Origin: Escherichia phage ph0021
Sequence record: OP557970.1
Length of the DNA stretch: 64,000 nt
Direction: 5' to 3' (one strand)
Part shown: piece after piece, positions 11,351-63,593 of the stretch
Layout of the letters: each line of letters begins with the position of its first letter
How positions within the stretch are numbered: position 1 is the first letter of the stretch
Translations under genes and position numbers: made by a program
The notes under the pieces: generated by a model
What the model saw: the letters and a program-made list of their open reading frames with translations, nothing else
Databases searched by the model: none
Told to the model about the DNA's origin: nothing

Positions 11351-11377
11351 TTTCTGTTCCTCCGTAGTTGATAGGGT

Positions 11378-11408
11378 AATAGTACCACGGAAGAACAGTC
11401 TTGTAAAC
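11378..11408 (-). promoter_or_regulatory. T4 early-type promoter
   Basis: GTTTAC-18nt-TACTAT, conserved leader CAACTACGGAGG. Confidence 0.65.
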
Positions 11409-11593: not shown

Positions 11594-11857
11594 TCATAGT
11601 TCAATCTCAACGATTTCCAAGTGTTTTTGTTTTATTGCCTTTTTAACACAATCATGGACTAAATATGACCATGAATCATTATATTCTCCATTAACTAATC
11701 GTTGGAGATCTTCACGTGATGATAAGTAAGGTTGATCTGATTCCCATTTTGATAAAAATACTGCAGTAAAAATATCTCCTTCATCTGTAGTTGAAGTCGT
11801 AAATGCAATAAATTCACCGGTAATTTTATGTTTAGCGTAATAAAATTTAAATTTCAT
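11594..11857 (-). CDS. hypothetical protein (88 aa)
   Basis: Real start MKFKFYYAKHK after GGAGG leader; track ORF N-extended into promoter. Confidence 0.5.
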   Translation of the reverse strand: MKFKFYYAKHKITGEFIAFTTSTTDEGDIFTAVFLSKWESDQPYLSSREDLQRLVNGEYNDSWSYLVHDCVKKAIKQKHLEIVEIEL

Positions 11858-11884
11858 TTTTACTCCTCCGTAGCTGATAGTTGT

Positions 11885-11914
11885 ATAGTACCACGGTCCT
11901 TGTGGTATGTAAAC
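11885..11914 (-). promoter_or_regulatory. T4 early-type promoter
   Basis: GTTTAC-18nt-TACTAT, AT-rich UP region, conserved leader. Confidence 0.65.
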
Positions 11915-11931
11915 TGTTTTGTGAAAATTTT

Positions 11932-12489
11932 TTAAATGGAAAGATACCATCCATTGTAGTTGCTTTTTCTTACAACCTTACGAAGGTCTTCTCTGTCACC
12001 GATGAACTTCGGAGTGTACTGGATGACACCTGGATGAATTTCTTTAGTGTTGAATATAATTATACAGTCAGCGACTTGATGATTTAGAATGGGCCCTAGA
12101 TTTATTCCAGAACCGTATGGATACTCTCCGCTGCATCCTGTTGTTACAGAAATCCAACGTGAGCCAGTTTGATGTGTCTTAACTTCTACACGAAGCCCAC
12201 AGTATTTTGGATGTGCTAAAACATCCCACGCGTATGTATATGGATCATCGACATCTTCTTGACCTTTATTAACATACCCGCTTAGCCAATCTGCTACAAA
12301 AAACTCTGCGTATACAGCAATACGACATCTTTCAATAACTTCTGCTTTATCCTGGTTCGGGTTTTGTTTTAAAGAGTATCTTGCAGTATCAGCAATTTTG
12401 ACCTTCATTTCACTAGTCAAGTCACTGTTCGATAGGGTAAATGTCGGAATCTGAAATAGTCTCTGTAAACCCGGATTCGTTTTCTGCAT
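11932..12489 (-). CDS. denB: endonuclease IV DenB
   Basis: 185 aa ORF at T4 denB position between rIIB and ndd; length matches. Confidence 0.65.
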   Translation of the reverse strand: MQKTNPGLQRLFQIPTFTLSNSDLTSEMKVKIADTARYSLKQNPNQDKAEVIERCRIAVYAEFFVADWLSGYVNKGQEDVDDPYTYAWDVLAHPKYCGLRVEVKTHQTGSRWISVTTGCSGEYPYGSGINLGPILNHQVADCIIIFNTKEIHPGVIQYTPKFIGDREDLRKVVRKSNYNGWYLSI

Positions 12490-12751: not shown

Positions 12752-12771
12752 AATTTTTCCTTAAAACAAAA

Positions 12772-12783
12772 GGGCCGAAGCCC
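12772..12783 (-). terminator. GGGC-CGAA-GCCC hairpin (UUCG loop on minus-strand RNA)
   Basis: Perfect stem flanked by A/T runs; intergenic. Confidence 0.45.
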
Positions 12784-12789
12784 TTTATT

Positions 12790-12984: not shown

Positions 12985-13000
12985 AATTTTCCTTAGTTAA

Positions 13001-13012
13001 GGGCCGAAGCCC
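13001..13012 (-). terminator. GGGC-CGAA-GCCC hairpin
   Basis: Identical hairpin core just downstream of rIIB stop. Confidence 0.45.
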
Positions 13013-13962: not shown

Positions 13963-16140
13963 TTAGGCCGCAAGGGCCTTCATAGTTTTAGCGATTTGAG
14001 AAACTTCATCATCACTTAAAGAGTTGCGATAACCGATGAAGTCGGAAACAATACGGAATTTCTTGGTAAACTCAGCAACCATTTTATCACTGTTTTTTGA
14101 AGCATTATTTGACAATACATCAAAAAGATTAGTTACTGTCCAGATGTCATGACCAATGGTATCTTTTCCACCATTAAAATATACACCGCGCAATGAACTA
14201 ACTATATTAGCGAGTCGTGTATATTCTTCAGAAACTTCATCTGTACTGAAGTACTTCATCATAAAATCTAACTCAGGATACTTGATAATTTTATCAATAT
14301 ATCGTTGAGCTGAACTTGAATAACCTACGTACTTATCATAATCTACATCATCAAAAGCATCTACATATAAATCACGCAAAGCTTCAAAAATACACTGGCA
14401 CTGACCGAGTTCTTTTACCTTTTTCTGTAAAAGCGGACGAATAACATAAAATTCATTAATGCCAATAAGATTAGCCATACGAATCAAAATATTCATAGAT
14501 GGATGACAAAGAGATGTAGTACCATCCATAGAGAAAATATCAGAACGATGCATATACGCTACATAACCAGTAATTTCATCTGCTTCTGATGTGAGCGTAA
14601 ATAATTCCTCTTTTTCCCAGCGCCCGTCTTTAATTTCAAACTTAAATGCTGTAGCAGCTTTAGGACGAGGAGCTTTACTTTTAACTACCTTTGGAATATA
14701 GCTTTTAACTAAAGCTTCGATTTCTGACAAATAATGAATGTTAACTTCATCACTTTCAAACATCGCCATAATATCAGGGAGTAAATCAATCTGCGATTCT
14801 ACTTCTGGGTTAATAAACAGAAGGCGTTCGTTATGATGAATATTCAAAGTGTTATTAAATTCACTATCATCTAACGCTCGTGCTAATCCACGAACAATAT
14901 TAACACGATTTTTAATATTATCAATAACGATATTAATTTTTGTTGTATTAATACCAAACAGACGATAACTTGATGCAACGGCTGAAGTTTCATGACTTTG
15001 CTTAATGCGTTTCAGTCGAGGGTCAAGATTTACTTCATACACAACTCCTGCATTGCATAACTTACTATCAGGTTCAAACATGCTTTGCATCTTTTTATAT
15101 GACAGATTTTTAGTCGTGAATTTAACTGAATTACTAATCATATAATCTCGAGCAGAATACCCCATCTTCATCAATTCACGATATGTGTGACGAGGAGATG
15201 TGGATTCTTTAAATCGTTTTACATCTTCATTAAATGCTTTCTCACTGAGTTCTTTAACTCGTTCAATAATATTTTTACGAGTACGATCATCCAGTGAAAG
15301 AGCCTCGCGAGATGGAGCAATATCAAGTGAACCCATTGGAAACTTAATGTAATTCACTTCATTGCGAATGCTTAGCCAGTTACGGTCTCTAATAACACCA
15401 TCGATAGGATAAACAATACCGCCATAGATAGCATATAATCCACCACGATCAGGCCAGTATCTTTCTGGATTTACACCGTAATAGTCATCAAAATCCGGAA
15501 AATAATCAATTTCGCGGTCAAGACCATTAATGATAGCCAAATCTTTGAATGGTCGCATGATATAAGAAACTTCATAAGCAAAGTTTCTAAAGTCTTTTTC
15601 TTCAACTGGAACTACGATTTCAATACCAGTTTTATCATCTGGACCCATTTCTTTTACGAATGTAGGTTTAATCTGTGGACCATCACCATCCATGTAAGCT
15701 ACATAACCACGAATTTCGCCTTTATGATATGAAGTAATACTAAATGTATCAGTATAACTAAACGGAGATTTAGAACCTAAACCAAATCCACCAATGAAAT
15801 CGTTAGATTCAGCCTTAGATGAACTAAAGTATGAATTATACAACCCAGGAGAATTATCATCACCCTGAATATCAAAATCGCTCATACCTGGACCAAAATC
15901 ACGACAAACAAATCGCGGATCTAATCGTCCTGGAACTTGAATGATAAATTTTTCAGGATTTCCATTGAGAGCATGGGCATCAATCATATTGGTAATCAAT
16001 TCACGGACTACTGCGCGAATCTTGTTTGTATACAAATCAGATGACAGAATTTTAAATACTTTAGGAGATGCTGTGATGCTAAATGCTTTTGATTTAGAAC
16101 CATTGCCAAGAATTGTTTCTTTTTCAGTGGTGATAATCAT
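13963..16140 (-). CDS. rIIA: rIIA protein
   Basis: 725 aa, length matches T4 rIIA; N-terminal GHKL-ATPase-like region. Confidence 0.9.
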
Positions 16141-16150
16141 AATTTCCTCA

Positions 16151-16354
16151 TTAATTCATATTGCGTTTAATAACTTCAGCGACTTCTAGTAGTTCATCTT
16201 TAGTTGCAGTGTCAGATTGAATTTTATCTCTAATATCCTTAAAGCGGTTTTTAAACTCTTCAGCTTCTCCCATATCGAAAAAGCGTTGAATGATTCTATA
16301 TTCTCGATGAACTGCTTTATCAAAAAGTTCTAAATTTACTTTATATGATTTCAT
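16151..16354 (-). CDS. hypothetical protein (rIIA.1 position)
   Basis: 67 aa ORF between 39 and rIIA. Confidence 0.5.
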
Positions 16355-16379
16355 TTCAATATCCTCATTTGCCCAATTA

Positions 16380-16409
16380 ATTATACCACATCCTTGTGGT
16401 AAAGTAAAC
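16380..16409 (-). promoter_or_regulatory. T4 early-type promoter (GTTTAC / TATAAT)
   Basis: GTTTAC-18nt-TATAAT; spacer holds palindrome CCACAAGGATGTGG; overlaps 3' end of gene 39. Confidence 0.65.
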
Positions 16410-18229
16410 TACTGGCTCATCCATTCTTTACGAAGGTCAGCATTATCTCCCATGAGCATTTCAAAAAGCTCTTTCCAATTCTCAGGAAGTTTAACAACAT
16501 CATATACTGGGTTTTGAATCATCTCACGATATTCAGATTTTTCCAAAGAGCCAAGTCCTTTAATATAACGGATGCTATGTTTAGGTAGAGCATCTTTGGC
16601 ACTCTCATATTCAGCGACTGTATAAAACCATTCTTGTTTTTTACCAATTTGAGCGATGATTACAGGAGTTTTGACAAAACGAATTCGTCCTTGCTCAAAC
16701 AATTCTGGCCAATTACTAAAAAATCCGAGCAAAGAAGGATAAATGCTTCCTAGACCATCATGGTCGGCATCAGTCATAATAGCAATATTATGATAATTTA
16801 AGTTTTCAGCCTTTTCACCGAGAACTAATCCAGTGATTGCGCAAATATCAAATAGTTCTTTGTTTTTAAGCATATCTGCATAAGACATACCCCAACTGTT
16901 GAGAACTTTACCGCGCAATGGATAACCACCGTGAAGTTCTTTATCACGAACATCAATAAGATATCCGATAGCCGAATCACCCTCAGTTAAGAATAGTGTA
17001 GTGTCAGCATCTTTACCGCAAAGATTCGCTTTAATATGTTTATGAACCTTAGCTTTAGAAGCCTTTTTAGCTGCTTTAGTTTCTGCTGCTTTTTCTGCTG
17101 CCAATTTACGGGCCAAGGCAGCTTCAATAATCGGCATTAAAATTGCTTCATTATTTAGAATAGCGCGTGAAATCTTTTTAGCATCAAGTTGAATATGACT
17201 ACGAATTTCGCCAAATGGAGAAGTCAAACGCTCTTTAGTTTGAGAATCAAATCGCATGTTTTTCATATCACGGACAAACATAACGATAGTCAAACATTCT
17301 TTGACACGTGCTTTAGTCACATCAATTTTGAACTTACGTTTGATTTGCGGAATAAGGTCTTCACAAATATCATCCATAACACAGTCAATGTGATGGCCAC
17401 CATTCTTAGTGTGAATGTTATTGACGTATGTTAATTGACGAAAACCATCCGGTGAACGACCAACCGCAATAGAACAATTTTCTTGTTCTTGAACAATAGC
17501 ATGCTCATCATATTGGCGTGCATATTTCTTAAAATTGCCCTGAACCTTTTTACCATTAAAGGTAAATTGAATATCAGGATAAACTACTGCAAGTGTCTGG
17601 AGACGATCTAGTGTAATGTCAAGATAAACTTGAGATAGCTCATTAGTTTCAAATGACATAAAATCAGGAATGAAAGTAACACGTGTTCCTTTCCATTTTC
17701 CAGGAATATCTTCCCATGATTTATTTTCCATACCATTTGAACAACGAACTACAATATTATTTTGACCGTCGCCAGTTTCACCAACAAACATCACAGAAAA
17801 AATGTTTGTCAAACTAGAACCAACACCGTTCATACCGCCAGTGACGCGTTCTTTATCATCACCGAAGTTACCACCTGCTTTTGGAATAGTCCATGCAGCA
17901 ACAGGACCAGGAATTTCTTCACCGGTAGGTGTTTTGACCATCGCTTGTGGAATACCACGACCGTTATCTTCAACTGTTACTTGATTGTTTTTAATAGTAA
18001 CATTAATTTTATTCGCGAATTTAAACTTAGTACGAATACCTTCATCTACTGAGTTATCGATAATTTCATCAATAAGCTTAACAAGACCAGGTACATACTG
18101 AACACTTTCCCATTTACCAAACAGAAAGCGCTCATGCATTTCATTAGCAGAAGAGCCAATGTACATGCCACTACGCTTTTTGATATGTTCAATATCGCTC
18201 AGAATTTTAATTTCATTCTTAATCATCAC
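16409..18229 (-). CDS. 39: DNA topoisomerase II large subunit gp39 (GyrB-like), unsplit form
   Basis: 606 aa continuous ORF with GyrB ATPase/Toprim sequence; no gene 60 interruption. Confidence 0.9.
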   Translation of the reverse strand: MMIKNEIKILSDIEHIKKRSGMYIGSSANEMHERFLFGKWESVQYVPGLVKLIDEIIDNSVDEGIRTKFKFANKINVTIKNNQVTVEDNGRGIPQAMVKTPTGEEIPGPVAAWTIPKAGGNFGDDKERVTGGMNGVGSSLTNIFSVMFVGETGDGQNNIVVRCSNGMENKSWEDIPGKWKGTRVTFIPDFMSFETNELSQVYLDITLDRLQTLAVVYPDIQFTFNGKKVQGNFKKYARQYDEHAIVQEQENCSIAVGRSPDGFRQLTYVNNIHTKNGGHHIDCVMDDICEDLIPQIKRKFKIDVTKARVKECLTIVMFVRDMKNMRFDSQTKERLTSPFGEIRSHIQLDAKKISRAILNNEAILMPIIEAALARKLAAEKAAETKAAKKASKAKVHKHIKANLCGKDADTTLFLTEGDSAIGYLIDVRDKELHGGYPLRGKVLNSWGMSYADMLKNKELFDICAITGLVLGEKAENLNYHNIAIMTDADHDGLGSIYPSLLGFFSNWPELFEQGRIRFVKTPVIIAQIGKKQEWFYTVAEYESAKDALPKHSIRYIKGLGSLEKSEYREMIQNPVYDVVKLPENWKELFEMLMGDNADLRKEWMSQ

Positions 18230-18253
18230 TTATCCTCGTTTGGTTTCGGGAAT

Positions 18254-18283
18254 ATTATACTCCGGTAATCATAAAGCTAAAGG
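18254..18283 (-). promoter_or_regulatory. candidate middle-type promoter upstream of gene 39 (AGCTTTA box, 12 nt, TATAAT)
   Basis: Minus strand TTTAGCTTTATGATTACCGGAGTATAAT directly after terminator hairpin. Confidence 0.4.
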
Positions 18284-18294
18284 CCCGAAGGCCT
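18281..18294 (-). terminator. AGGCC-CGAA-GGCCT hairpin
   Basis: Perfect 5 bp stem immediately after stop of upstream ORF. Confidence 0.5.
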
Positions 18295-18295
18295 T

Positions 18296-18556
18296 TTATT
18301 TAAAACGAATAGTTGAATCCTTAAAGAACAGTCCAGAACATACTGTTCCTTCTACTTTCTGCCCAGTAGGTCCAATAGCACGAAATCCAGTATGTTGGAA
18401 ATCATTTTCAGAGCAACCGAACCAGTTATATCCAGTGATTTCAATATTAGTAAAACCGCTTGAAGACAAAACTTTGGTTGCATTATCAGCATCAGTACAT
18501 CCTACTAAAGACACTACTAATACTAATGCTGCAATAGAACGATTAATATATTTCAT
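18296..18556 (-). CDS. putative lipoprotein (39.1 position)
   Basis: 86 aa, signal peptide with lipobox LVGC. Confidence 0.55.
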   Translation of the reverse strand: MKYINRSIAALVLVVSLVGCTDADNATKVLSSSGFTNIEITGYNWFGCSENDFQHTGFRAIGPTGQKVEGTVCSGLFFKDSTIRFK

Positions 18557-18559
18557 AAT

Positions 18560-18736
18560 TACCCTTTAAGCAAGTCGTAAAATCCGCCATTCACATGCTT
18601 AGGAGCGGAAACTAACCGAATAGCAATCCGATGACAATCAGGACATACATCAGTATCCCTTTCAGAAATTTTCTTGATTTTTTCATATTCATGTCCGCAA
18701 TCTTCGGATTGGCATTTATAATCATACATTGGCATA
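18560..18736 (-). CDS. small zinc-ribbon protein (58 aa)
   Basis: CxxC...CxxC pattern (MPMYDYKCQSEDCGHEYE...CPDCH); read by hand. Confidence 0.45.
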
Positions 18737-18737
18737 A

Positions 18738-19157
18738 TTATTCCTTAAAGTGTGCTTTCAACATCTGATACAAGGACCATGCTTGTTCATTATTTTCAAT
18801 AATAACTTTCATGATCGGGAATTCTGTGAAATCTTCTATTTGTTCTTGCTCTTCCTGCTCTTGTTCTTCAGCTGCCTGATATGGATTTTCCACTTCATTA
18901 AAGAACTCAGCTTCGCTCGTTGAAAGCCAAATAAAATCTTCATCCAAAATATCTTTACCGGAGGATAACGCCAATCTTCCAGTAGATGTCACAATTTTAG
19001 TAGGACGACCAAGATGGTCAATATCTATAACTTTAAAAGGTTCCATACCTAAACGCCGCGCATAGATTCCGTTATCAGTATGGTCTTTAATAAAATTTTC
19101 TTGAGCTTGTTTATTTTTAAATTGATACCATTTATTAACTTCGAATTTAATAGCCAT
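18738..19157 (-). CDS. hypothetical protein (goF position)
   Basis: 139 aa, acidic EQEQEEQEQ tract. Confidence 0.5.
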
Positions 19158-19375
19158 TAATAAATTTCCTTCCAGTAAGTTGTGCCATCTTCAGTAATTT
19201 CACGAAATACACCGTAAATTGGTTGTTTATCCCCAACCTTTTCATACACATAAACCGAAGTCAAGTGAGTAAACTTAGCAGTGTGTTCCTTTTGAACTAC
19301 TACCAAATCTGGATCGAATAATACATCTTCAAATTCATCATTAGTGCAATTCTGAACAATTTTACGTTTCATCAT
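19157..19375 (-). CDS. hypothetical protein (cef position)
   Basis: 72 aa ORF. Confidence 0.5.
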
Positions 19376-19473
19376 AATTTCCTCATTAATTGAACATTGG
19401 AGCGATGCGTTTCAGAAGAGTATCAGCGCACCTTTAACGAATTATCCATTTTATTCTTCAAGTTGTTTTCTGT

Positions 19474-19516
19474 ATCAGTAGTTGATATTGATATAGTACC
19501 ATAATCAACTACTGAT
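19474..19516 (-). promoter_or_regulatory. promoter-like -10/leader element flanked by 13 bp perfect inverted repeat
   Basis: ATCAGTAGTTGAT ... ATCAACTACTGAT arms around TACTAT; no GTTTAC -35. Confidence 0.4.
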
Positions 19517-19546
19517 GTATATAGTTTTATGAAAAAATTTTAAACT

Positions 19547-20038
19547 TTATGCATAGCGAGCTTTGCTGTAGTGTTTAATCCAACTTTCAGGAATGACTTT
19601 GTATGTTCCTAAAAATACCGCGTTGTATAACTTAACGCCATCTTCTACCCATTGATCAGTAATGTATGCACACATAGCGCGAGTACGCTGAGGAAGTGGT
19701 TGTCCACCTTCGGTAAATTCAAACTCATAAGGAGCAATGAACTTGATAGCTTGACCAAGTTTCCACTTAAAGTCTACACCTACATGCGAAGTATCAATCG
19801 TTTCAATTCCTTTAGCAGGAACAGCTTTCAAAAACGCAGGCTCAAGAAATTTCCATCGAACATAACCAAACTGGGGCTTAGACATTCCATCTTTAGCAAT
19901 GATACGTACTTTTACTTCAGAATCTTCATCTTTAACACCGTGTTTAAGCTGAATGCTTACAACTTCGACCAATTTTCCTGCTGCTTTAGAACGGGATTTA
20001 TCAGATACACGAGCAATTTCACCGATATTAATATTCAT
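19547..20038 (-). CDS. MotB-like protein
   Basis: 163 aa at T4 motB position; paralog of adjacent 182 aa ORF. Confidence 0.5.
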   Translation of the reverse strand: MNINIGEIARVSDKSRSKAAGKLVEVVSIQLKHGVKDEDSEVKVRIIAKDGMSKPQFGYVRWKFLEPAFLKAVPAKGIETIDTSHVGVDFKWKLGQAIKFIAPYEFEFTEGGQPLPQRTRAMCAYITDQWVEDGVKLYNAVFLGTYKVIPESWIKHYSKARYA

Positions 20039-20082
20039 AATTATCTCTCACTTGTTAAAAAGATTTTATACTCCACAGGACC

Positions 20083-20112
20083 ATTATACTCTGGTCCCAA
20101 GAGTTTGTAAAC
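20083..20112 (-). promoter_or_regulatory. T4 early-type promoter (GTTTAC / TATAAT)
   Basis: GTTTAC-18nt-TATAAT upstream of motB-like gene. Confidence 0.65.
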
Positions 20113-20660
20113 TAGCTTACACGAACATTAATCACTGCGCTACGAGGAACTACAGAGTATTCTCCAGCATGAACTACGTTCAGAAGTTCAACACCATCTT
20201 CAATCCACTGGTCTGTTACCCAACCACAGATAGGATTATCAAAAGGACGACGGATAGACACAGCAGCACACAACAAGTCTGTAGGGTCTTGTTCTTCAAC
20301 TTCTTGGAACAGGATGAACTCATCTTCATAAACCAGGTTTTTCTTTATTTTGTTATTATCTAACCGGCGACCGTGGATGACGTAAGATTTGTCAAACCAC
20401 TCACTTTTGGCAAATTCTTCAACAATAAATTCGCCTTCGCCAAAAACATCAGTCAGAGTTTTATGACCAGAAATCAAGGCATTAGTTTTAATTTTAGGTT
20501 CAACCAGTTTGTAGGTTTTGCCGATTTCAATAGCGGTAGTCATAGTAGTTTCCTTAATTTCCAGTGGTTTAACAGGGCATACATAAGTGCTTACAACATC
20601 AAAATCAATCAGTTTAGCTACTGGATTTGGTGTGTATTCAGGATTATAATTAAATTTCAT
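20112..20660 (-). CDS. hypothetical protein, paralog of MotB-like protein
   Basis: 182 aa; C-terminal VTDQWIEDGVELLNVVHAGEYSVVP aligns with ITDQWVEDGVKLYNAVFLGTYKVIP in neighbour. Confidence 0.55.
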   Translation of the reverse strand: MKFNYNPEYTPNPVAKLIDFDVVSTYVCPVKPLEIKETTMTTAIEIGKTYKLVEPKIKTNALISGHKTLTDVFGEGEFIVEEFAKSEWFDKSYVIHGRRLDNNKIKKNLVYEDEFILFQEVEEQDPTDLLCAAVSIRRPFDNPICGWVTDQWIEDGVELLNVVHAGEYSVVPRSAVINVRVS

Positions 20661-20662
20661 AA

Positions 20663-21163
20663 TTATCTCATTTCAATAAAATCTACGAGTTCAGCATGGG
20701 ATTTACGGAACATTACTTGATGTCCACCAATGATAACTTCATCTTCAGGAACTTCATATACAGCGAGATAAAATCCTTTAGAAGCTAATTCTTCACGCTC
20801 TTCTCGTGTGAACCATCTCATCATATCATATTCACTAGCGAAAGCAAAATGATAAAGACCTATAAACCATCCGGGAATATGATATTCTACTCCAACATAA
20901 TCTTTCTTGAACTTAGTATTAATTACTATATTAGCGTTTTTAACTAATAGTTTATCTTCGTGCGGTAAAGGAATTCTTTTATTATTATCGCTATGATGCA
21001 TAAAATTAGGTCTGTCATAACCTACGTGTAATAGCCACTCTTCGCTCCATGAATCTATTATACTCCTGTACGGCGTTATTTGAACACAAAGATTTCGACG
21101 TATTGTTATAGCATCTTCATAATCAAGAATACTAAACGATGATTCAACACGATAAATTTTCAT
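20663..21163 (-). CDS. hypothetical protein
   Basis: 166 aa ORF. Confidence 0.55.
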   Translation of the reverse strand: MKIYRVESSFSILDYEDAITIRRNLCVQITPYRSIIDSWSEEWLLHVGYDRPNFMHHSDNNKRIPLPHEDKLLVKNANIVINTKFKKDYVGVEYHIPGWFIGLYHFAFASEYDMMRWFTREEREELASKGFYLAVYEVPEDEVIIGGHQVMFRKSHAELVDFIEMR

Positions 21164-21191
21164 TTTATTATCCTCGGTTAGCTATGGTGTT

Positions 21192-21221
21192 ATAATACCA
21201 TAACTAACCGAGGAAGTAAAC
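21192..21221 (-). promoter_or_regulatory. T4 early-type promoter (GTTTAC / TATTAT) inside long palindrome
   Basis: GTTTAC-18nt-TATTAT; flanked by inverted repeat TCCTCGGTTAG/CTAACCGAGGA. Confidence 0.6.
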
Positions 21222-21227
21222 AACTTT

Positions 21228-21911
21228 TTATCGTTTAGTTGGAAGAGATAGAGGATCGCATTCTTCCTCTGATGGAGCGTCTTCAAGACCCATAGCATAC
21301 CGCAAAGCATACTTCATCATCAGGATGTCTTTCGCACAGTCATGAATGGAATCATGTGCAACAAATCCATCCAAGGTTCCTTTTGGAAGAGGACATGTGG
21401 TCATATCACGAACGAGTAGAAGTGCTTCAATTCTGGTACGAATATCACGCTGATTCCAGAATTTACATGGTTCTAACTTAAATGTGTCAAGTTCATTCTC
21501 AGAAACGCCATTAAAACGTTGAATATCGCGAATGAGATCGACTAAAATTGGAAAATCAAACGACATTCCACGGCACCAGCCTTGAGATTTCCAAGGATCG
21601 ATATTATGCGCATTGATGTAATCATTAAATTTTGCAATACCGTCAATAGTGCTTACATCTTCATCGGATGGTGCAATATTTTTTCTAGCTTCAGGGGATT
21701 GATTCTTCCACCATTCGATAGTGCTTTTAGTAAAAAGACGATGTCCTTTTTGGCTTTTTAAATCAAATTTGATTTTAATGCCGCGTGAAACTAATTCATC
21801 AAATGTTTCAACTACTTCTGGGTTAGGGTCAAAAGCAATTACAGCTAAATCAATAACAGCTGCTTTTTCACCGCTTCCCATTGTTTCAAAATCTATAATA
21901 AAATCAAACAT
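21228..21911 (-). CDS. dexA: exonuclease A DexA
   Basis: 227 aa, DEDD exonuclease-like N-terminus (FDFETMG), matches T4 DexA length and order. Confidence 0.85.
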   Translation of the reverse strand: MFDFIIDFETMGSGEKAAVIDLAVIAFDPNPEVVETFDELVSRGIKIKFDLKSQKGHRLFTKSTIEWWKNQSPEARKNIAPSDEDVSTIDGIAKFNDYINAHNIDPWKSQGWCRGMSFDFPILVDLIRDIQRFNGVSENELDTFKLEPCKFWNQRDIRTRIEALLLVRDMTTCPLPKGTLDGFVAHDSIHDCAKDILMMKYALRYAMGLEDAPSEEECDPLSLPTKR

Positions 21912-22186
21912 TAAATTTTCCTCGCTAAATCACGAATTTGGCCTACAGTATAATCTTGAATATAAACTATATTAATAGGTTCATCAATAAATTTTGCCAT
22001 AGATTCAATATCTTTTTGTATTTCTTCAAGACTGTATATTATCTTTAAAGCTTTTTCGCGAATAGTAACATTATCAGGTCCTGGATTTTCCTCAATGACA
22101 GCTTTGACATTTGTCATAAGAGATTTAAACTGATGCAAACTTAATTCAATCATTAATAATCGCCTTATAAAGATGGCTAATTTCAC
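21911..22186 (-). CDS. hypothetical protein, member of small tandem paralog set
   Basis: 91 aa; shares LEEIxxDL...DYxxGxI pattern with next ORF. Confidence 0.5.
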   Translation of the reverse strand: MKLAIFIRRLLMIELSLHQFKSLMTNVKAVIEENPGPDNVTIREKALKIIYSLEEIQKDIESMAKFIDEPINIVYIQDYTVGQIRDLARKI

Positions 22187-22406
22187 CTAAAACATAATCA
22201 CTGATTGTAACAGTTTTTACTTCACCACAAAAGAATTCTAACGCAATCAAATCTCGTTCAATTTCTTCCAATTGAAGCATTAACTTGCCTGATTCAGTTT
22301 TCACATTTTTGCGATTTTTGCTATAAGCTATTTCATAAATTTCGCTTATTTTATCTTGAAGAAGATAAAACTGATCTTTAGTTATTTCCACGAATAGCTT
22401 CCTCAA
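22146..22406 (-). CDS. hypothetical protein, member of small tandem paralog set
   Basis: 86 aa. Confidence 0.5.
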   Translation of the reverse strand: MRKLFVEITKDQFYLLQDKISEIYEIAYSKNRKNVKTESGKLMLQLEEIERDLIALEFFCGEVKTVTISDYVLGEISHLYKAIIND

Positions 22407-22638
22407 ATTTAATCAATAATTTACAGACGCTTTCATCTAATGTAATTACCGTATCTGTATTACTATGATATGATTGTTTTTCAATTCGTTTAATTGCTAA
22501 TATAGTATCACTTATAAGATAAAGCTTATGAAGCAGCTCAGCTCCTGTTACCATAACATTAAGATTATCTTGCTTATTAGTATGCTTCCTTATACCATCT
22601 ATTAAACGATTTAAATATTTTGAATTGATGTTAATCAT
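22378..22638 (-). CDS. hypothetical protein (dda.1 position)
   Basis: 86 aa. Confidence 0.5.
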   Translation of the reverse strand: MININSKYLNRLIDGIRKHTNKQDNLNVMVTGAELLHKLYLISDTILAIKRIEKQSYHSNTDTVITLDESVCKLLIKFEEAIRGNN

Positions 22639-22644
22639 ATATCC

Positions 22645-23964
22645 TCACACATAAAATACGTCATAACGACCACGGGTAACACCAACATAAAGAAGTTGTT
22701 GAGCCAATTCAGCATCTGCATAATGAATACAAGGCGTATAGATGAAAGCACGATCTACAGACATACCCTGAGCTTTATGGAATGTTGATGCAGGAAGTGC
22801 TTTCACTTTACTAAACTGTGATTTAGCATCCCAAAAATCACTCCACGGAGCTTTTCCGCCTTTATTCCAGTTCTTATAAGTTTCTGCCGTTTTACCTAAA
22901 AATAGGTTAAACTTATATAGCTCTTCATCAGATGAAATTATTTTAATCTTTTCGCGATAATATTCATCATCGCCGTAAGTTTCTACTGTTAAATCCCAAT
23001 GACGAATTAAGTATTCTCCAGGAACACCACGAGCTTTAACAAATGTTGATGTATATTCTGCTTCTATAATACGAACTAATTGTCCATTATTAAAAATAAT
23101 TTCTGACACAGGCTTTCCATCAATTTTATATGTTTTAATTAATGGTTCCTGCATTACAATAATTTCACCGACAATAAAATCTTTATCAGTTTCAAAAATC
23201 TTTTTACGAATAATGCTATTTAACTTGTCAACAGATTTATTCGTAAATGCCATTACGCGATTTTCAAACAAATCATCTAGAGATTTGACGATTGAAAAAT
23301 AATTTACCATAAAATCGCGTAAAGCGGTATCACCAGTAAATCCACGTACTCCATGCCCGTCAACAATTTTATCATAAATCCACTTACCGTTACGAACGTC
23401 AGTAGCTACATCAATAATAGGAGCATTACTGCGTTTAACTTCAGTGAGTTCACACTGATAAAAATCTTTATGTGTAAAGAATGGACTGATATAAGCAGTG
23501 TTTTCTCCTGGGTCAACAGGTCTAATTTGCTTATTATCACCTATTCCAATTATAGTACACCACGGCGGGATAGTTGAAAGCAGAATTTTAAATAGCTTTC
23601 TATCATACATTGACACTTCGTCACAGATTAATACCCTGCATTTAGCTAAATCTGGTACTTCCTTCTGTTCAAAAAGAACATTTTCTTCATATGTTACTGG
23701 GTTAATTTTAAGAATACTATGAATAGTACTCGCTTCTTTTCCTGATAGTTTTGAAAGAATCTTTTTAGCTGCATGAGTAGGAGCTGCTAAAATAATACCA
23801 GTTTCACCTGTAGATATTAGGGCTTCAATAATAAACTTAGTAAGAGTAGTCTTACCGGTACCAGCAGGTCCATTAATAGTTACATGATGTTTCTTTTCTT
23901 TAATAGCCTTCATAACGATGTTAAAGGCATTTTTCTGGCCTTCGGTCAAATCATCAAATGTCAT
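22645..23964 (-). CDS. dda: DNA helicase Dda (SF1B)
   Basis: 439 aa, Walker A GPAGTGKT, matches remembered T4 Dda. Confidence 0.9.
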   Translation of the reverse strand: MTFDDLTEGQKNAFNIVMKAIKEKKHHVTINGPAGTGKTTLTKFIIEALISTGETGIILAAPTHAAKKILSKLSGKEASTIHSILKINPVTYEENVLFEQKEVPDLAKCRVLICDEVSMYDRKLFKILLSTIPPWCTIIGIGDNKQIRPVDPGENTAYISPFFTHKDFYQCELTEVKRSNAPIIDVATDVRNGKWIYDKIVDGHGVRGFTGDTALRDFMVNYFSIVKSLDDLFENRVMAFTNKSVDKLNSIIRKKIFETDKDFIVGEIIVMQEPLIKTYKIDGKPVSEIIFNNGQLVRIIEAEYTSTFVKARGVPGEYLIRHWDLTVETYGDDEYYREKIKIISSDEELYKFNLFLGKTAETYKNWNKGGKAPWSDFWDAKSQFSKVKALPASTFHKAQGMSVDRAFIYTPCIHYADAELAQQLLYVGVTRGRYDVFYV

Positions 23965-24272
23965 CGTAAATTCCCTGCAATTGGTATACTAACAATACGC
24001 CCAGTATCTAAAATTCGCTGATATAATCTTTGTGTGTCTACGTCAGGCTTAACATGTTTAACTTCTATTTTATTAAACCAAAACTTGCGTGGAGTCTCAA
24101 CTAATCTTGGAATTCCCTTACCTAAAGCTAATCGATACTGCTCTTTAAGAGTAGTAAATACTTTATCAGCAATATTCCATTCAAAAAATACAGCAGGACG
24201 ATGTTCATCAAGCGGAACTGGCGCCGTAAATCCGTCTTTGTCTCGGTAAACTATCGCATATACATAAACCAT
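23961..24272 (-). CDS. hypothetical protein
   Basis: 103 aa, overlaps dda start by 4 nt. Confidence 0.5.
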   Translation of the reverse strand: MVYVYAIVYRDKDGFTAPVPLDEHRPAVFFEWNIADKVFTTLKEQYRLALGKGIPRLVETPRKFWFNKIEVKHVKPDVDTQRLYQRILDTGRIVSIPIAGNLR

Positions 24273-24273
24273 A

Positions 24274-25020
24274 TTATCCTCGGATAAGTTTAAAAATTGA
24301 ACAATTTAGCGGATATCCTCTTTTCAGTTTAAGTTTATCAATAAAAGACAAATTTTGATACCGCTCTACACCTTGAATAATTTTATCACACATATCATAT
24401 TGCATTTCTGCTTCTGACAGCTTTTTCACAATTTTCCAATCCGAGCCTTTAAGAAGAACGTTCAATTTAACAACTTCAGCGCCTTCTGCTATACGAGAAC
24501 CATCAATACGAGCTTTAAGTGCTATAATCGTTAGCTTAACGTCAGAAGTTTGTTTTGATTTAGAAAGCTGAGAAATGTGCTCAATTCGGTTTTCACGTTT
24601 TTTCTGTATAGCTTTAATTTGATTATAAGTCTTTTTGATTTTAGCCCATTTCTTTTCATCTAAATTTAGTTTATGAACTTTTTTCGCAGATGAACGACCA
24701 ATTCGCAAAGCAAATAAATCACGCTTTTCAATCAACTCTTCTAAAGTATAATCAGAACGAAATGTATTATACTTTTTCTTTACTGCAATAACATTCCCTT
24801 TAATGTATCCAACGTTATTATCAAAACGTTCTAATGATAATTTCTCTCCTTCAATACGATTATCAAAAGGTTCTCCCGAGTAAGCACAAACTTTCTGATC
24901 TAAAATGTTCTTAATGTAATTGAAGTCTAAGTTAAAATCTTTAGAACGTCTTTTTGCAGATGCCTGAGTATGCTCTAGACGACGTTTAATTTTACGAATT
25001 TGGTTATTAGACAGCTTCAT
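24274..25020 (-). CDS. hypothetical protein at srd position; has HNH-like SLERFDNNVGYIKGNV motif
   Basis: 248 aa, basic/Lys-rich; motif resembles phage HNH endonuclease signature. Confidence 0.55.
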   Translation of the reverse strand: MKLSNNQIRKIKRRLEHTQASAKRRSKDFNLDFNYIKNILDQKVCAYSGEPFDNRIEGEKLSLERFDNNVGYIKGNVIAVKKKYNTFRSDYTLEELIEKRDLFALRIGRSSAKKVHKLNLDEKKWAKIKKTYNQIKAIQKKRENRIEHISQLSKSKQTSDVKLTIIALKARIDGSRIAEGAEVVKLNVLLKGSDWKIVKKLSEAEMQYDMCDKIIQGVERYQNLSFIDKLKLKRGYPLNCSIFKLIRG

Positions 25021-25056: not shown

Positions 25057-25086
25057 ACTATAACATTTTTACCTTAACTTGTAAAC
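25057..25086 (-). promoter_or_regulatory. T4 early-type promoter
   Basis: GTTTAC-18nt-TATAGT upstream of 248 aa ORF. Confidence 0.55.
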
Positions 25087-25746: not shown

Positions 25747-26366
25747 TCAACTACCTCAATATCATAAACTTTAAATATTCCAAACGAATCGTGTAATTTT
25801 TCTTTTGAAATAGAAGTTATTTTATACTTTCCAATTGGAATCATCCATTCTTGTTCACGCACAATCATCATTAAGTTATCAGTACGCTCTGAATCTAATC
25901 CATCAGTATCTTCATACGTGTACTTAAACTCAGTATTAGGAGAAGAAAGTATAATATCGCTGATATGGTCAGAATAATTAAAAGCTTTATCAGTTTTTAA
26001 GCGAAATATTATTTCAGTGAAATACTCAACATAAGAAAAACCGCATGCTGTGTGCAAACTAGTAGTAAATGAATCTACCCTGTTCGTTGAAAACACTTCT
26101 CCAACTTGTAAATCTTTAATAAGTTCTTCTGTTGATTTTGATATACCACGATATAACTGATATGGTGATTTAGTTAAATGCTTTTTAATGATTTTATTCA
26201 ACTGCTGATGAAGAGATTCATTCTTTTTGGCTTCCATACATTGCCAAAGAATTGACTGTTCAAAGTCAGTAAATTTTTCACAGACCTTTTTATACATATC
26301 ATATTGAAAATCAACGCTTTCAGCTTTTATAGATAACTGTTCAACATCTGCAAGATTAATAATCAT
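25743..26366 (-). CDS. modB: ADP-ribosyltransferase ModB
   Basis: 207 aa; LYRGIS, EQEWMIP motifs; paralog of ModA. Confidence 0.7.
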   Translation of the reverse strand: MIINLADVEQLSIKAESVDFQYDMYKKVCEKFTDFEQSILWQCMEAKKNESLHQQLNKIIKKHLTKSPYQLYRGISKSTEELIKDLQVGEVFSTNRVDSFTTSLHTACGFSYVEYFTEIIFRLKTDKAFNYSDHISDIILSSPNTEFKYTYEDTDGLDSERTDNLMMIVREQEWMIPIGKYKITSISKEKLHDSFGIFKVYDIEVVE

Positions 26367-26392
26367 GATAGCCTCCGTATACTTCAGAAGCT

Positions 26393-26421
26393 ATCATATC
26401 ACCGTTAGAAAGGAAAGTAAA
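26393..26421 (-). promoter_or_regulatory. T4 early-type promoter
   Basis: GTTTAC-18nt-TATGAT, leader with GGAGG before modB ATG. Confidence 0.6.
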
Positions 26422-26433
26422 CAACTTTTTGAA

Positions 26434-33023: not shown

Positions 33024-33081
33024 AACAATCTCCTCATTTAACCAACAAGACTACTATACCATAGTCTTGTCAGCTTGTAAA

Positions 33082-38497: not shown

Positions 38498-38746
38498 TCA
38501 AATGCAAGTAGTAATTACTCCAGTAGTGCTTATGCAGATATTACCCATTTGCACACCTAAAGACCCATTTGTATTCACATGAAGATTATCATCAATTTTA
38601 ACTGATATTTTACCATTAGTGTGAATAACGGTGCTAGATTCAATCACAGGTTGGGTATCATTTTCAACACTAACAAATGGAACTGCTGCTAATGCAACTA
38701 AACAAACTGCTAAGCATCCCATAACAATTTTCATTTTATTCTCCAA
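38498..38746 (-). CDS. small secreted protein
   Basis: 82 aa with N-terminal signal peptide. Confidence 0.5.
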   Translation of the reverse strand: MENKMKIVMGCLAVCLVALAAVPFVSVENDTQPVIESSTVIHTNGKISVKIDDNLHVNTNGSLGVQMGNICISTTGVITTCI

Positions 38747-38771
38747 ATCTGTATCAGTAGTTGATAGTTGT

Positions 38772-38801
38772 ATAGTACCATAGAAGAACAGTCTTGTAAA
38801 C
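38772..38801 (-). promoter_or_regulatory. T4 early-type promoter
   Basis: GTTTAC-18nt-TACTAT, UP element AAAAAATTTCACAAAA. Confidence 0.65.
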
Positions 38802-38887
38802 AGTTTTGTGAAATTTTTTAGGGAATTCTAAAGGTCCAGAATCATCTGTTTTTCATAAGTATAGATTTATATTACTTGTATGAAAAA

Positions 38888-38903
38888 GGGACCCGGAGGT
38901 CCC
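38888..38903 (-). terminator. intrinsic terminator after gene 43
   Basis: GGGACC-CGGA-GGTCCC stem, U-run on minus strand. Confidence 0.55.
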
Positions 38904-38918
38904 CCTAGATTTATTCTA

Positions 38919-41615: not shown

Positions 41616-41675
41616 AGATATTCCTTAGTTTATAGCCCGAGTTATTAGGCTCTTGATATATTATACTCCAATTAA

Positions 41676-41689
41676 GGGGCCGAAGCCCC
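41676..41689 (-). terminator. GGGGC-CGAA-GCCCC hairpin
   Basis: Perfect stem between regA stop and gene 43; TATAAT follows on minus strand. Confidence 0.4.
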
Positions 41690-41693
41690 TTGC

Positions 41694-43588: not shown

Positions 43589-43623
43589 AATTTCCTCATT
43601 CAAGTTTTAGTGTAAATTATAAA

Positions 43624-43635
43624 GGGCCGAAGCCC
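43624..43635 (-). terminator. GGGC-CGAA-GCCC hairpin between 45 and 44
   Basis: Hairpin followed by TTTATAAT on minus strand. Confidence 0.4.
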
Positions 43636-43639
43636 TCTA

Positions 43640-44972: not shown

Positions 44973-45027
44973 GTTTTTCCTCCATAGAGATTATACTCTA
45001 ATAAATTAAAGCATAATCTCTTATAAA

Positions 45028-48308: not shown

Positions 48309-48335
48309 ATTATATCAAACTCCGTATAAAGCTAA
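48309..48335 (-). promoter_or_regulatory. candidate middle-type promoter (AGCTTTA box, 12 nt, TATAAT)
   Basis: Minus strand TTTAGCTTTATACGGAGTTTGATATAAT right after hairpin; same architecture as element at 18254-18294. Confidence 0.35.
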
Positions 48336-48336
48336 A

Positions 48337-48348
48337 GGGCCGAAGCCC
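48337..48348 (-). terminator. GGGC-CGAA-GCCC hairpin after a-gt
   Basis: Perfect stem immediately after a-gt stop. Confidence 0.5.
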
Positions 48349-48349
48349 T

Positions 48350-49552: not shown

Positions 49553-49605
49553 TTAATATCCTCTTTGTTTTGGTTTATTTTACCAAAAATTTATAAAGCA
49601 ATATA

Positions 49606-49619
49606 GGAGCCGAAGCTCC
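49606..49619 (-). terminator. GGAGC-CGAA-GCTCC hairpin
   Basis: Perfect 5 bp stem upstream of a-gt. Confidence 0.45.
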
Positions 49620-51046: not shown

Positions 51047-51124
51047 TTTCACCTCTTAGCTCAATTCATAGATCTATTATATCATAATATTTGAAGATCT
51101 ATCTTAAAGCATAGAGGATATCAG

Positions 51125-51935: not shown

Positions 51936-51975
51936 ACATTATCCTCAATTGCATTAAAATTTTATTATCCAAAAA

Positions 51976-51987
51976 GGGCCGAAGCCC
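51976..51987 (-). terminator. GGGC-CGAA-GCCC hairpin
   Basis: Perfect stem flanked by A-run and T-rich sequence. Confidence 0.45.
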
Positions 51988-56649: not shown

Positions 56650-56691
56650 AATAAAACCCTTACCTTAAATAGATAAGGGTATTTATTATTT

Positions 56692-59507: not shown

Positions 59508-59559
59508 GTTCTTCTCACTTGGTTAATGATTTATACTCCGAGCCATCCTTGGCTTTAAA

Positions 59560-60589: not shown

Positions 60590-60619
60590 ATTATACCACA
60601 TCCTTGTGGCAAAGTAAAC
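60590..60619 (-). promoter_or_regulatory. T4 early-type promoter (GTTTAC / TATAAT)
   Basis: GTTTAC-18nt-TATAAT with palindromic spacer CCACAAGGATGTGG. Confidence 0.65.
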
Positions 60620-62974: not shown

Positions 62975-63005
62975 TAGAACCATTATACCATCCTTGGTAT
63001 AAAGC
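62975..63005 (-). promoter_or_regulatory. candidate extended -10 promoter (TGGTATAAT)
   Basis: TATAAT with upstream TG and palindromic TATACCAAGGATGGTATA; no GTTTAC. Confidence 0.4.
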
Positions 63006-63535: not shown

Positions 63536-63563
63536 TTTGTGTTCCTCCGTAGTTGATAGTTGT

Positions 63564-63593
63564 ATAGTACCACAGAGGAACAGTCTTGTAAAC
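63564..63593 (-). promoter_or_regulatory. T4 early-type promoter
   Basis: GTTTAC-18nt-TACTAT, leader CAACTACGGAGG. Confidence 0.65.

Follow-up and report, generated by a model that had tools for sequence, protein, structure and literature searches.

A promoter-embedded RNA hairpin that may hide the motB.2 ribosome site on read-through transcripts of a T4-like phage

In bacteriophage T4, the ribosome sites of genes e, soc, 49 and I-TevI are sequestered in long early and middle transcripts, and these genes are translated from transcripts of a late promoter located inside the structure (PMC3014915). Other structured elements, the promoter-early stem-loops (PeSLs) of T4-type phages, have been assigned terminator or attenuator roles as well as roles in recombination (Arbiol et al. 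2010, PMC2839356), and one RB49 stem-loop cut lacZ expression as much as rrnB T1 did (PMC2839356). A later study extended PeSLs to PST/T4 and to nt-1/KVP40 (Comeau et al. 2014, PMC4122927), and the internal-protein loci of T-even phages are said to have analogous, AT-richer elements. Here we examine a 64,000-nucleotide (nt) stretch of Escherichia phage ph0021 (OP557970.1), hereafter the window, which comes from a Tequatrovirus, that is, a T4-like phage, and we focus on a palindrome at 21171-21214 that spans the early promoter of the motB.2 gene. We consider, with a probability of roughly 0.6, that this palindrome is a promoter-embedded hairpin hiding the motB.2 ribosome site on read-through transcripts.

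Since the early genes are located on the minus strand, all the palindromes have to be read on that strand, to which the features given below belong unless otherwise indicated. The early promoter before motB.2 has a −35 element GTTTAC at 21216-21221, identified both by direct reading and by promoter scans, and a −10 element TATTAT with TGG in front at 21192-21197. The 5′ arm of the palindrome, UCCUCGGUUAGUUAUGGU (21197-21214), fills the promoter spacer; the −10 element occupies the top of this arm and part of the 8-nt loop AUUAUAAC (21189-21196); and the 3′ arm, ACCAUAGCUAACCGAGGA (21171-21188), ends with the five bases GAGGA (21171-21175), which are the Shine-Dalgarno sequence of the motB.2 homologue. 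This gene (20663-21163, AUG at 21163-21161) encodes a protein of 166 amino acids, and its ribosome site would be the gated one. On the minus strand the complete layout reads GTTTAC-U-[UCCUCGGUUAGUUAUGGU]-AUUAUAAC-[ACCAUAGCUAACCGAGGA]-UAAUAAA-AUG, in which the 5′ arm opens with the anti-Shine-Dalgarno UCCUC one base past the −35 and GAGGA lies 7 nt from the AUG. The original prediction, which had placed the end of the palindrome at 21213 instead of 21214, missed the presence of the Shine-Dalgarno sequence within the 3′ arm, and this is likely the key to the function of the site. As DNA, the palindrome consists of perfect outer arms of 11 base pairs (bp) and a 6-bp inner palindrome. As minus-strand RNA it forms an unbroken 18-bp helix, because the lone imperfection is a U.G pair. 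The helix has a stability of about −31 kcal/mol, and the 86-nt region around it folds at −37.1 kcal/mol with a z score of −10.3, calculated, like all the z scores given here, by comparing RNA folding with that of 200 dinucleotide shuffles. No U tract follows the stem, UAAUAAAAUG being found there instead, and the site, with its 8-nt loop, is not called by a terminator scan.

We propose that the palindromes mirror, at the DNA level, hairpins formed by RNA of the transcribed (minus) strand. With each promoter lying inside its hairpin, two kinds of mRNA would be produced: a transcript from an upstream promoter would carry both arms and fold, and a transcript from the embedded promoter would start in the loop or in the 3′ arm, lacking the 5′ arm and therefore the hairpin. 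Start sites were predicted on the assumption that transcription begins ∼7 nt past the −10. With this assumption the 5′ arm at the flagged site lies upstream of the start site and is missing from the promoter's own transcripts, which would begin inside the 3′ arm, so that no helix would be possible. The calculated cost of opening the motB.2 ribosome site is 20.1 kcal/mol in the read-through RNA versus 10.8 kcal/mol in the promoter-proximal RNA, and this residual cost is due to a weak pairing with codons 15-17.

Transcripts across dexA (21228-21911), the gene upstream of the hairpin, would run into it. Start sites of the T4 middle promoters Pdex.2 and Pdda.1 have been mapped (PMC2988021, Table 1), and the window carries copies of both regions, at 23283-23342 (60/60 identical) and at 24363-24422 (59/60 identical), respectively, which are likely sources of read-through. 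The boxes of the T4 middle promoters in this stretch are variants, and these promoters were identified by comparing the sequence directly with that of T4, the exact TGCTT middle-promoter pattern being absent from the minus strand at 21300-25000. Also, no terminator-like site was found on the minus strand between an early promoter at 25086 and the motB.2 promoter (21221). The conservation of Pdex.2 and Pdda.1 and the lack of a terminator in between make read-through into the hairpin plausible, and we would thus expect it to occur in the middle period. On such mRNAs, whether initiated at the early promoter at 25086, at Pdda.1 or at Pdex.2, the ribosome site of motB.2 would be locked in the 18-bp helix, and efficient translation would take place only on the mRNA from its own early promoter. 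The latter might be the T4 early promoter P8.1 (mentioned in PMC2988021), a candidate that could not be confirmed. Early promoters are turned off within minutes of infection, and synthesis of the motB.2 product is therefore predicted to be limited to the immediate-early period.

The flagged site shares with the hairpins of e, soc, 49 and I-TevI a stable helix that, on transcripts from upstream, covers the Shine-Dalgarno sequence and/or the AUG, and a promoter within the structure-encoding DNA whose own transcripts lack the 5′ strand (here, from the predicted start). The gene 49 hairpin itself is found in the window at about 56650-56691. The difference lies in the type of internal promoter: in the four T4 genes it is a late one (TATAAATA) and translation is late-only, whereas the flagged site has one of the early type, GTTTAC-N18-TATTAT. 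An early instead of a late internal promoter would therefore have the mirror-image effect, that is, translation restricted to the early period. With such a promoter, the flagged site would be a variant of the T4 sequestration mechanism and would not belong to the late-gene set. The literature searched, in which the main T4 genome review was not covered, yielded no account of a translational gate with an early promoter.

We compared the motB.2 promoter with its orthologues from IMG/VR (11 loci) and from GenBank phages. A second IMG/VR scan based on a protein alignment recovered the same 11 loci. Tequatroviruses other than this phage have UCCUCGGU(U)AGUUGUGGU / ACCAUAGCUACUGAGGA as arms, and the DNA palindrome of T4 and most relatives is imperfect, with one bulge and 2-4 G.T positions. 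These T4-type variants nevertheless form a complete helix as sense RNA, with −21 to −24 kcal/mol versus −9 to −20 kcal/mol for the antisense RNA. The arms are UUCUCCUCAUG / CAUGAGGAGAA in Dhakavirus-type phages, UUCUCCUCUGGUU / AACCAGAGGAGAA in one Mosigvirus and AUCUCCGUUUGG / CCAAACGGAGAU in one Karamvirus. In these three groups and in Tequatrovirus, an anti-Shine-Dalgarno right past the −35, starting zero or one base after GTTTAC, faces a Shine-Dalgarno sequence in the 3′ arm, and the stem is extended beyond the Shine-Dalgarno by GGUUAG/CUAACC in Tequatrovirus, AUG/CAU in the Dhakavirus type, UGGUU/AACCA in Mosigvirus and GUUUGG/CCAAAC in Karamvirus. One Kanagawavirus shows another layout, similar to that of modB described below, where the 5′ arm holds the −10 and the 3′ arm takes in the Shine-Dalgarno sequence together with the AUG. 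As a plain MAFFT alignment of the promoter-to-AUG regions placed the Shine-Dalgarno sequences out of register and was unfit for consensus folding, we used an arms-only alignment with constant linkers, in which the register was fitted to each sequence's own predicted helix. Results showed changes on both sides in 9 of 13 pairs, with 92% of the cells paired in this fitted register; the score was reached by none of 500 shuffles, and slid registers gave only 0-1 pairs with changes on both sides. The original prediction had made conservation of the symmetry in related phages a touchstone of function. Strict DNA symmetry is not kept; at the sequence level, it is the pairing at the motB.2 promoter that is conserved, with co-variation, across five genera.

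To place the flagged site among the promoters of its class, we considered the ∼21 T4-early-type promoters that a motif scan of the window identified on the minus strand (GTTTAC, 18 nt, a TATAAT-like −10, mostly with TGG before it), nearly all of them located in short intergenic gaps. The z scores of promoter regions were −10.3 for 21171, −4.7 for 19474, −4.1 for 33082 and −3.1 for 20112, and the hairpins at 63540-63582, 11354-11398 and 26358-26403 likewise fold far better than shuffled sequence. A stability of −17 kcal/mol or better was reached by 2.5% of random minus-strand 65-mers versus 7 out of 21 early promoters. In addition, we carried out a permutation test in which the spacer plus −10 of each promoter was paired with the downstream 42 nt of every promoter. 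Native pairs were much more stable than permuted ones (p = 2e-4), the signal coming from seven promoters (63593, 33082, 21221, 20112, 19522, 11408 and, with a weaker contribution, 11914). The long palindromes are thus genuine and not due to chance, but they belong to roughly one early promoter in three, not to the promoter class as a whole.

The hairpins are also biased towards one strand. Across the seven strong ones, 18 G.U pairs occur on the sense strand versus 4 on the antisense strand, and for four of the seven (63593, 33082, 26422 and 11408) the sense RNA is the more stable one by 7 kcal/mol or more. A strand difference of at least 7 kcal/mol is found in 7% of random segments, and the mean bias arising from the G-over-C excess of the strand is 1.6 kcal/mol. 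Moreover, arm sequences are unrelated between promoters and show no common half-site consensus. The strand bias and the unrelated arms argue for selection on the RNA of the transcribed strand, and against a common operator and cruciforms. All five palindromes named by the original prediction are present in the sequence, and of the three readings it had offered for them (a protein-binding site, a cruciform or an RNA hairpin) only the last one is supported by these data.

Three other promoters have hairpins in which the ribosome site of the next gene is covered. The one at 63540-63582 repeats the design of the flagged site, with the 5′ arm UGUUCCUCUGUGGU in the spacer, the −10 in the loop, and a 3′ arm, ACUACGGAGGAACA, containing the Shine-Dalgarno sequence of an open reading frame (ORF) of 175 amino acids. 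Its paralogue at 11354-11398 (arms CUGUUCUUCCGUGGU / ACUACGGAGGAACAG) has the same design, and the sole differences between the 5′ arms of the two hairpins are C-G to U.G exchanges. At the modB promoter (26358-26403), the 5′ arm spans the −10 TATGAT and the start-site region, and the 3′ arm spans the Shine-Dalgarno GGAGG as well as the AUG. This hairpin is also present in T4, where one G-to-A change makes an A-U pair from a G.U pair. Opening the ribosome site costs 20.3 kcal/mol on read-through RNA versus 3.9 kcal/mol on proximal RNA at 63593, 18.8 versus 1.2 kcal/mol at 11408, and 14.8 versus 2.9 kcal/mol at 26422 (modB), and we propose that these three hairpins would act as gates like that of motB.2, the modB one covering the AUG too. 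Early-only translation is thus predicted for motB.2, modB and two small ORFs. None of the four proteins with gated ribosome sites has a Pfam match. The idea that a toxic 'MotB family' might be the reason for the gate was abandoned, as BLASTP reveals no similarity between MotB.2 and MotB.

Covered ribosome sites account for four of the seven strong hairpins, and the remaining three do not touch any. In the gap between motB and cef, the hairpin at 19474-19516, whose 13-bp arms are perfect as originally claimed, has its 5′ arm AUCAGUAGUUGAU in the spacer of a TATACA-17-TACTAT promoter and its 3′ arm AUCAACUACUGAU at about +1 to +13, and covers no Shine-Dalgarno sequence; it is invariant among the Tequatroviruses sampled and so gives no information on co-variation. 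A second hairpin (33040-33075; 15 pairs, 4 of them G.U) crosses the −10 of the promoter before dmd, again without covering the Shine-Dalgarno sequence. Among the Tequatrovirus sequences compared, one relative shows two one-sided transitions in it, both of which keep the pairing through G.U, and outside Tequatrovirus dmd directly follows another ORF with no gap. The third, GGGACCA/UGGUCCU, surrounds the −10 of the motB promoter (20077-20098); as with motB.2, the arms differ in Dhakavirus-type relatives, where the corresponding position is taken by GAGAGCCAU/AUGGCUCUC. These three structures would be present only in read-through RNA and more likely serve in protection of the 3′ end of the upstream mRNA, or in attenuation.

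Several points weigh against the proposed gate. Three of the seven strong hairpins are off any ribosome site, and therefore sequestration is not the only role. In the proximal motB.2 leader, the Shine-Dalgarno sequence has codons 15-17 as an alternative, weaker partner (−12.3 kcal/mol, z = −1.95, not significant), which makes the contrast at the flagged site (9 kcal/mol) smaller than that at 63593 or 11408. Rho-dependent termination upstream could lower the amount of read-through. Finally, the fitted register inflates the percentage of paired cells in the arms-only alignment, although the diversity of complementary arms is not favoured by construction. The broader proposition that T4-type phages use an 'early-only' translational gate, in which an anti-Shine-Dalgarno in the early-promoter spacer keeps the gene silent on longer delayed-early and middle transcripts, is one that we put forward tentatively and hold to be somewhat less probable than the reading of the motB.2 site itself.

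The description closest in anatomy to the flagged site is that of the PeSLs, for which the hairpin would be a terminator or attenuator insulating small early genes and the promoter-stem cassette would be a recombination site for gene shuffling. Such a role is compatible with a ribosome-site gate, and the anatomy does match: like PeSLs, the site is intergenic, after a stop codon, its upstream region is AT-rich and its early promoter strong and of the sigma-70 type, and it has a stem-loop lying between −35 and −10 or over the −10, followed by a Shine-Dalgarno sequence and a start codon. The lacZ effect of the RB49 stem-loop and the PeSL-like elements reported for PST/T4 and the T-even internal-protein loci point in the same direction, and so does the sharing of promoter cores among several loci and unrelated contexts, illustrated by the 20-mer CCACAAGGATGTGGTATAAT, which the window carries at two loci and other T4-like phages carry in a third context, and by mosaic promoters such as that at 38801, which combines two promoter families. 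However, the promoter-spanning hairpins have large loops (8-17 nt) and no U tract behind them, and a terminator scan calls none of them within 16000-22000. The evident terminators of the window are distinct from them, consisting of GGGCUUCGGCCC and a U tract and lying upstream of promoters; both kinds of hairpin are intergenic, on the coding strand and near promoters, but the short GC stems, UUCG tetraloop, U tract and position upstream of the promoter that mark the T4 intrinsic terminators are all missing from the promoter-spanning hairpins. The stems of RB49 and phi1 PeSLs are made of polyG/polyC, whereas the hairpins described here are AT-richer and have arms unique to each locus. In Comeau et al. 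(PMC4122927), the PST/T4 stem-loops are placed 'just upstream of' the promoter, and those of the window lie inside it. A pure terminator or recombination role leaves unexplained why the 5′ arm is an anti-Shine-Dalgarno in five genera. Pairing of the stem with the Shine-Dalgarno sequence is discussed neither in PMC2839356, whose main text does not contain the word 'translation', nor in PMC4122927. We consider the PeSL roles an unlikely explanation of the flagged site.

Two further explanations have less in their favour than the PeSL roles. The hairpins begin 10-45 nt past the upstream stop codon, and their G.U pairs and one-sided, pairing-preserving changes show selection at the RNA level, as would be expected if, in read-through or processed RNA, they shielded upstream messages (dexA, motB, gene 41) against attack by 3′ exonucleases at the 3′ end, or were the target of a double-strand-specific nuclease. 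The hairpins at 19474, 33040 and 20077, being off ribosome sites, need another role, and for hairpins so placed that of a 3′-end stabiliser is likely. As an account of the flagged site it is improbable, since it explains neither why the overlap with the Shine-Dalgarno sequence is exact at four sites nor why the promoter is placed between the arms. A signal read at the DNA level would be either the operator of a dimeric phage or host protein, for example a factor for early-promoter shut-off, or a cruciform blocking the polymerase. The symmetric stretch overlaps both spacer and −10, a place at which polymerase would indeed be blocked by a bound protein or a cruciform, the 21171 palindrome is nearly perfect as DNA in this phage, and the mechanism by which T4 early promoters are shut off is still unknown (PMC2988021). 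Yet the unrelated arms make a single sequence-specific binding protein unlikely, no more than roughly one early promoter in three has a long palindrome, and cruciforms are disfavoured because in them both strands must fold, whereas the hairpins are biased to the sense RNA beyond the compositional background. In T4 and most relatives, moreover, the bulge interrupts the symmetry, as do the G.T positions, which form pairs in the sense RNA only. A DNA-level role is accordingly the least probable of the explanations considered, and we give it very little credit.

The short palindromes located in promoter spacers have to be treated apart from the long ones. The mini-palindrome CCACAAGGATGTGG occurs in the promoter after gene 39 (16386-16399), wholly upstream of the start site, and as an identical copy in a second promoter (60596-60609). 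A third short palindrome, TATACCAAGGATGGTATA, lies at 62984-63001, not at 62980-62997 as first reported, and overlaps the −10 of what is more likely a middle promoter with a GCTTTA box, making it the one palindrome for which the claimed early-promoter context on the minus strand did not hold. Folding prediction, which had been suggested as a check, sets these elements apart from the long palindromes: compared with shuffles they gave z values of −0.3 to −1.5, none of them individually significant. They nevertheless share the octamer CAAGGATG, of which the minus strand carries four copies (16389-16396, 59544-59551, 60599-60606 and 62989-62996), all in promoter regions; ∼1.9 copies would be expected on both strands of the whole window. 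The remaining copy belongs to a fourth mini-hairpin, AGCCAAGGATGGCT (59541-59554), just upstream of TATAAAT. We consider that the chances are about even that the short palindromes at 16386, 60596 and 62984 have no structural function, their 3′ half (YRTGG before the −10) being promoter consensus and their repetition the result of common descent or core exchange. That they fold no better than shuffles, that (T/C)(G/A)TGG ends the spacer of most early promoters here, and that the identical 20-mer recurs in several contexts agree with this view. Against it, CAAGGATG is found four times on the coding strand, each time in a promoter region, and its flanks differ but stay complementary (CCACA/TGTGG, TATACCA/TGGTATA, AGCCA/TGGCT), which resembles a family of small hairpins whose AGGA loop is constant and which stand 1-8 nt ahead of the −10 of promoters of early, middle and possibly late type. 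The octamer copies, their complementary flanks and the shared 20-mer suggest more than coincidence, and fit either a promoter-core exchange as in the PeSL model or such a hairpin family.

Several observations concern the surroundings of these elements. The 4-kb stretch around the flagged site matches the GenBank record 'Pseudomonas phage PsgM02F' with 100% identity and hundreds of Tequatrovirus genomes from Escherichia and Shigella phages, T4 among them, with 91-97% identity. The host given in the PsgM02F record is Pseudomonas coronafaciens; the sequence is typical of an Escherichia/Shigella Tequatrovirus (93-97% identity), and this host assignment looks doubtful. From the annotated T4 and PsgM02F genomes, the gene order on the minus strand is dda, dexA.2, dexA.1, dexA, motB.2, motB.1, motB and cef. 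The 171-nt gap between motB and cef contains, ∼25 nt downstream of the 19474 hairpin, an unannotated mini-ORF of 8 codons (MDNSLKVR, 19423-19449) that is kept among Tequatroviruses and has its own Shine-Dalgarno sequence, GAAG here and GGAG in T4 and most relatives. A second ORF of 3 codons in the same gap overlaps the cef Shine-Dalgarno sequence, and these mini-ORFs may be a leader peptide or a coupling device. On the plus strand, an annotated coding sequence (CDS) of 108 nt, CDS0192 (19397-19504), overlaps the promoter hairpin in this gap and is probably spurious.

Promoters of the middle class (MotA-box type) are also found inside hairpins, before gene 55 (51047-51124) and gene 45.2 (44973-45027). 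In the gene 55 hairpin, CCUCU pairs with the Shine-Dalgarno AGAGG, and the opening cost is 15.3 kcal/mol on read-through RNA versus 4.5 kcal/mol on proximal RNA; its internal promoter is middle, whereas those of e, soc, 49 and I-TevI are late. Within the annotated CDS 11594-11950, the segment 11857-11950 contains a strong early promoter (GTTTAC 11914-11909), a Shine-Dalgarno sequence GGAGG and, at 11857, an ATG in frame; the annotated start is probably 31 codons too far upstream, or else there are two isoforms. The mosaic promoter with GTTTAC at 38801 (38735-38918) has a spacer of the family of 63593 and 11408 and a 5′ leader (AUCAACUACUGAUACAG...GGAGAAUAAAAUG) of the family of 19474, with arms that no longer pair, and looks like a product of recombination between promoter cores. 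Finally, at least eight near-identical GGGCUUCGGCCC hairpins with a UUCG tetraloop and a U tract stand just 5′ of promoters in intergenic gaps, for instance at 51936-51987, 49553-49618, 48311-48349, 43589-43639, 41616-41693, 18227-18295, 12985-13012 and 12752-12789. These are classical T4 intrinsic terminators, separate from the promoter-spanning hairpins.

Both the mechanism and the anatomy proposed here for the motB.2 promoter have published precedents, and they open no new field and define no new kind of element; what they chiefly offer is a prediction that can be tested, namely early-only translation. If this prediction were true, an anti-Shine-Dalgarno right past the −35 would mark a gated gene and could serve as an annotation rule, and the early-promoter stem-loops of T4-type phages, earlier described as terminators and recombination sites, would gain a functional reason. 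The timing of T4 early expression would then be set in part at translation, by the position of the promoter within an RNA hairpin, and not by promoter shut-off alone, which would help to explain the quick stop of some early proteins while transcription across their genes goes on.

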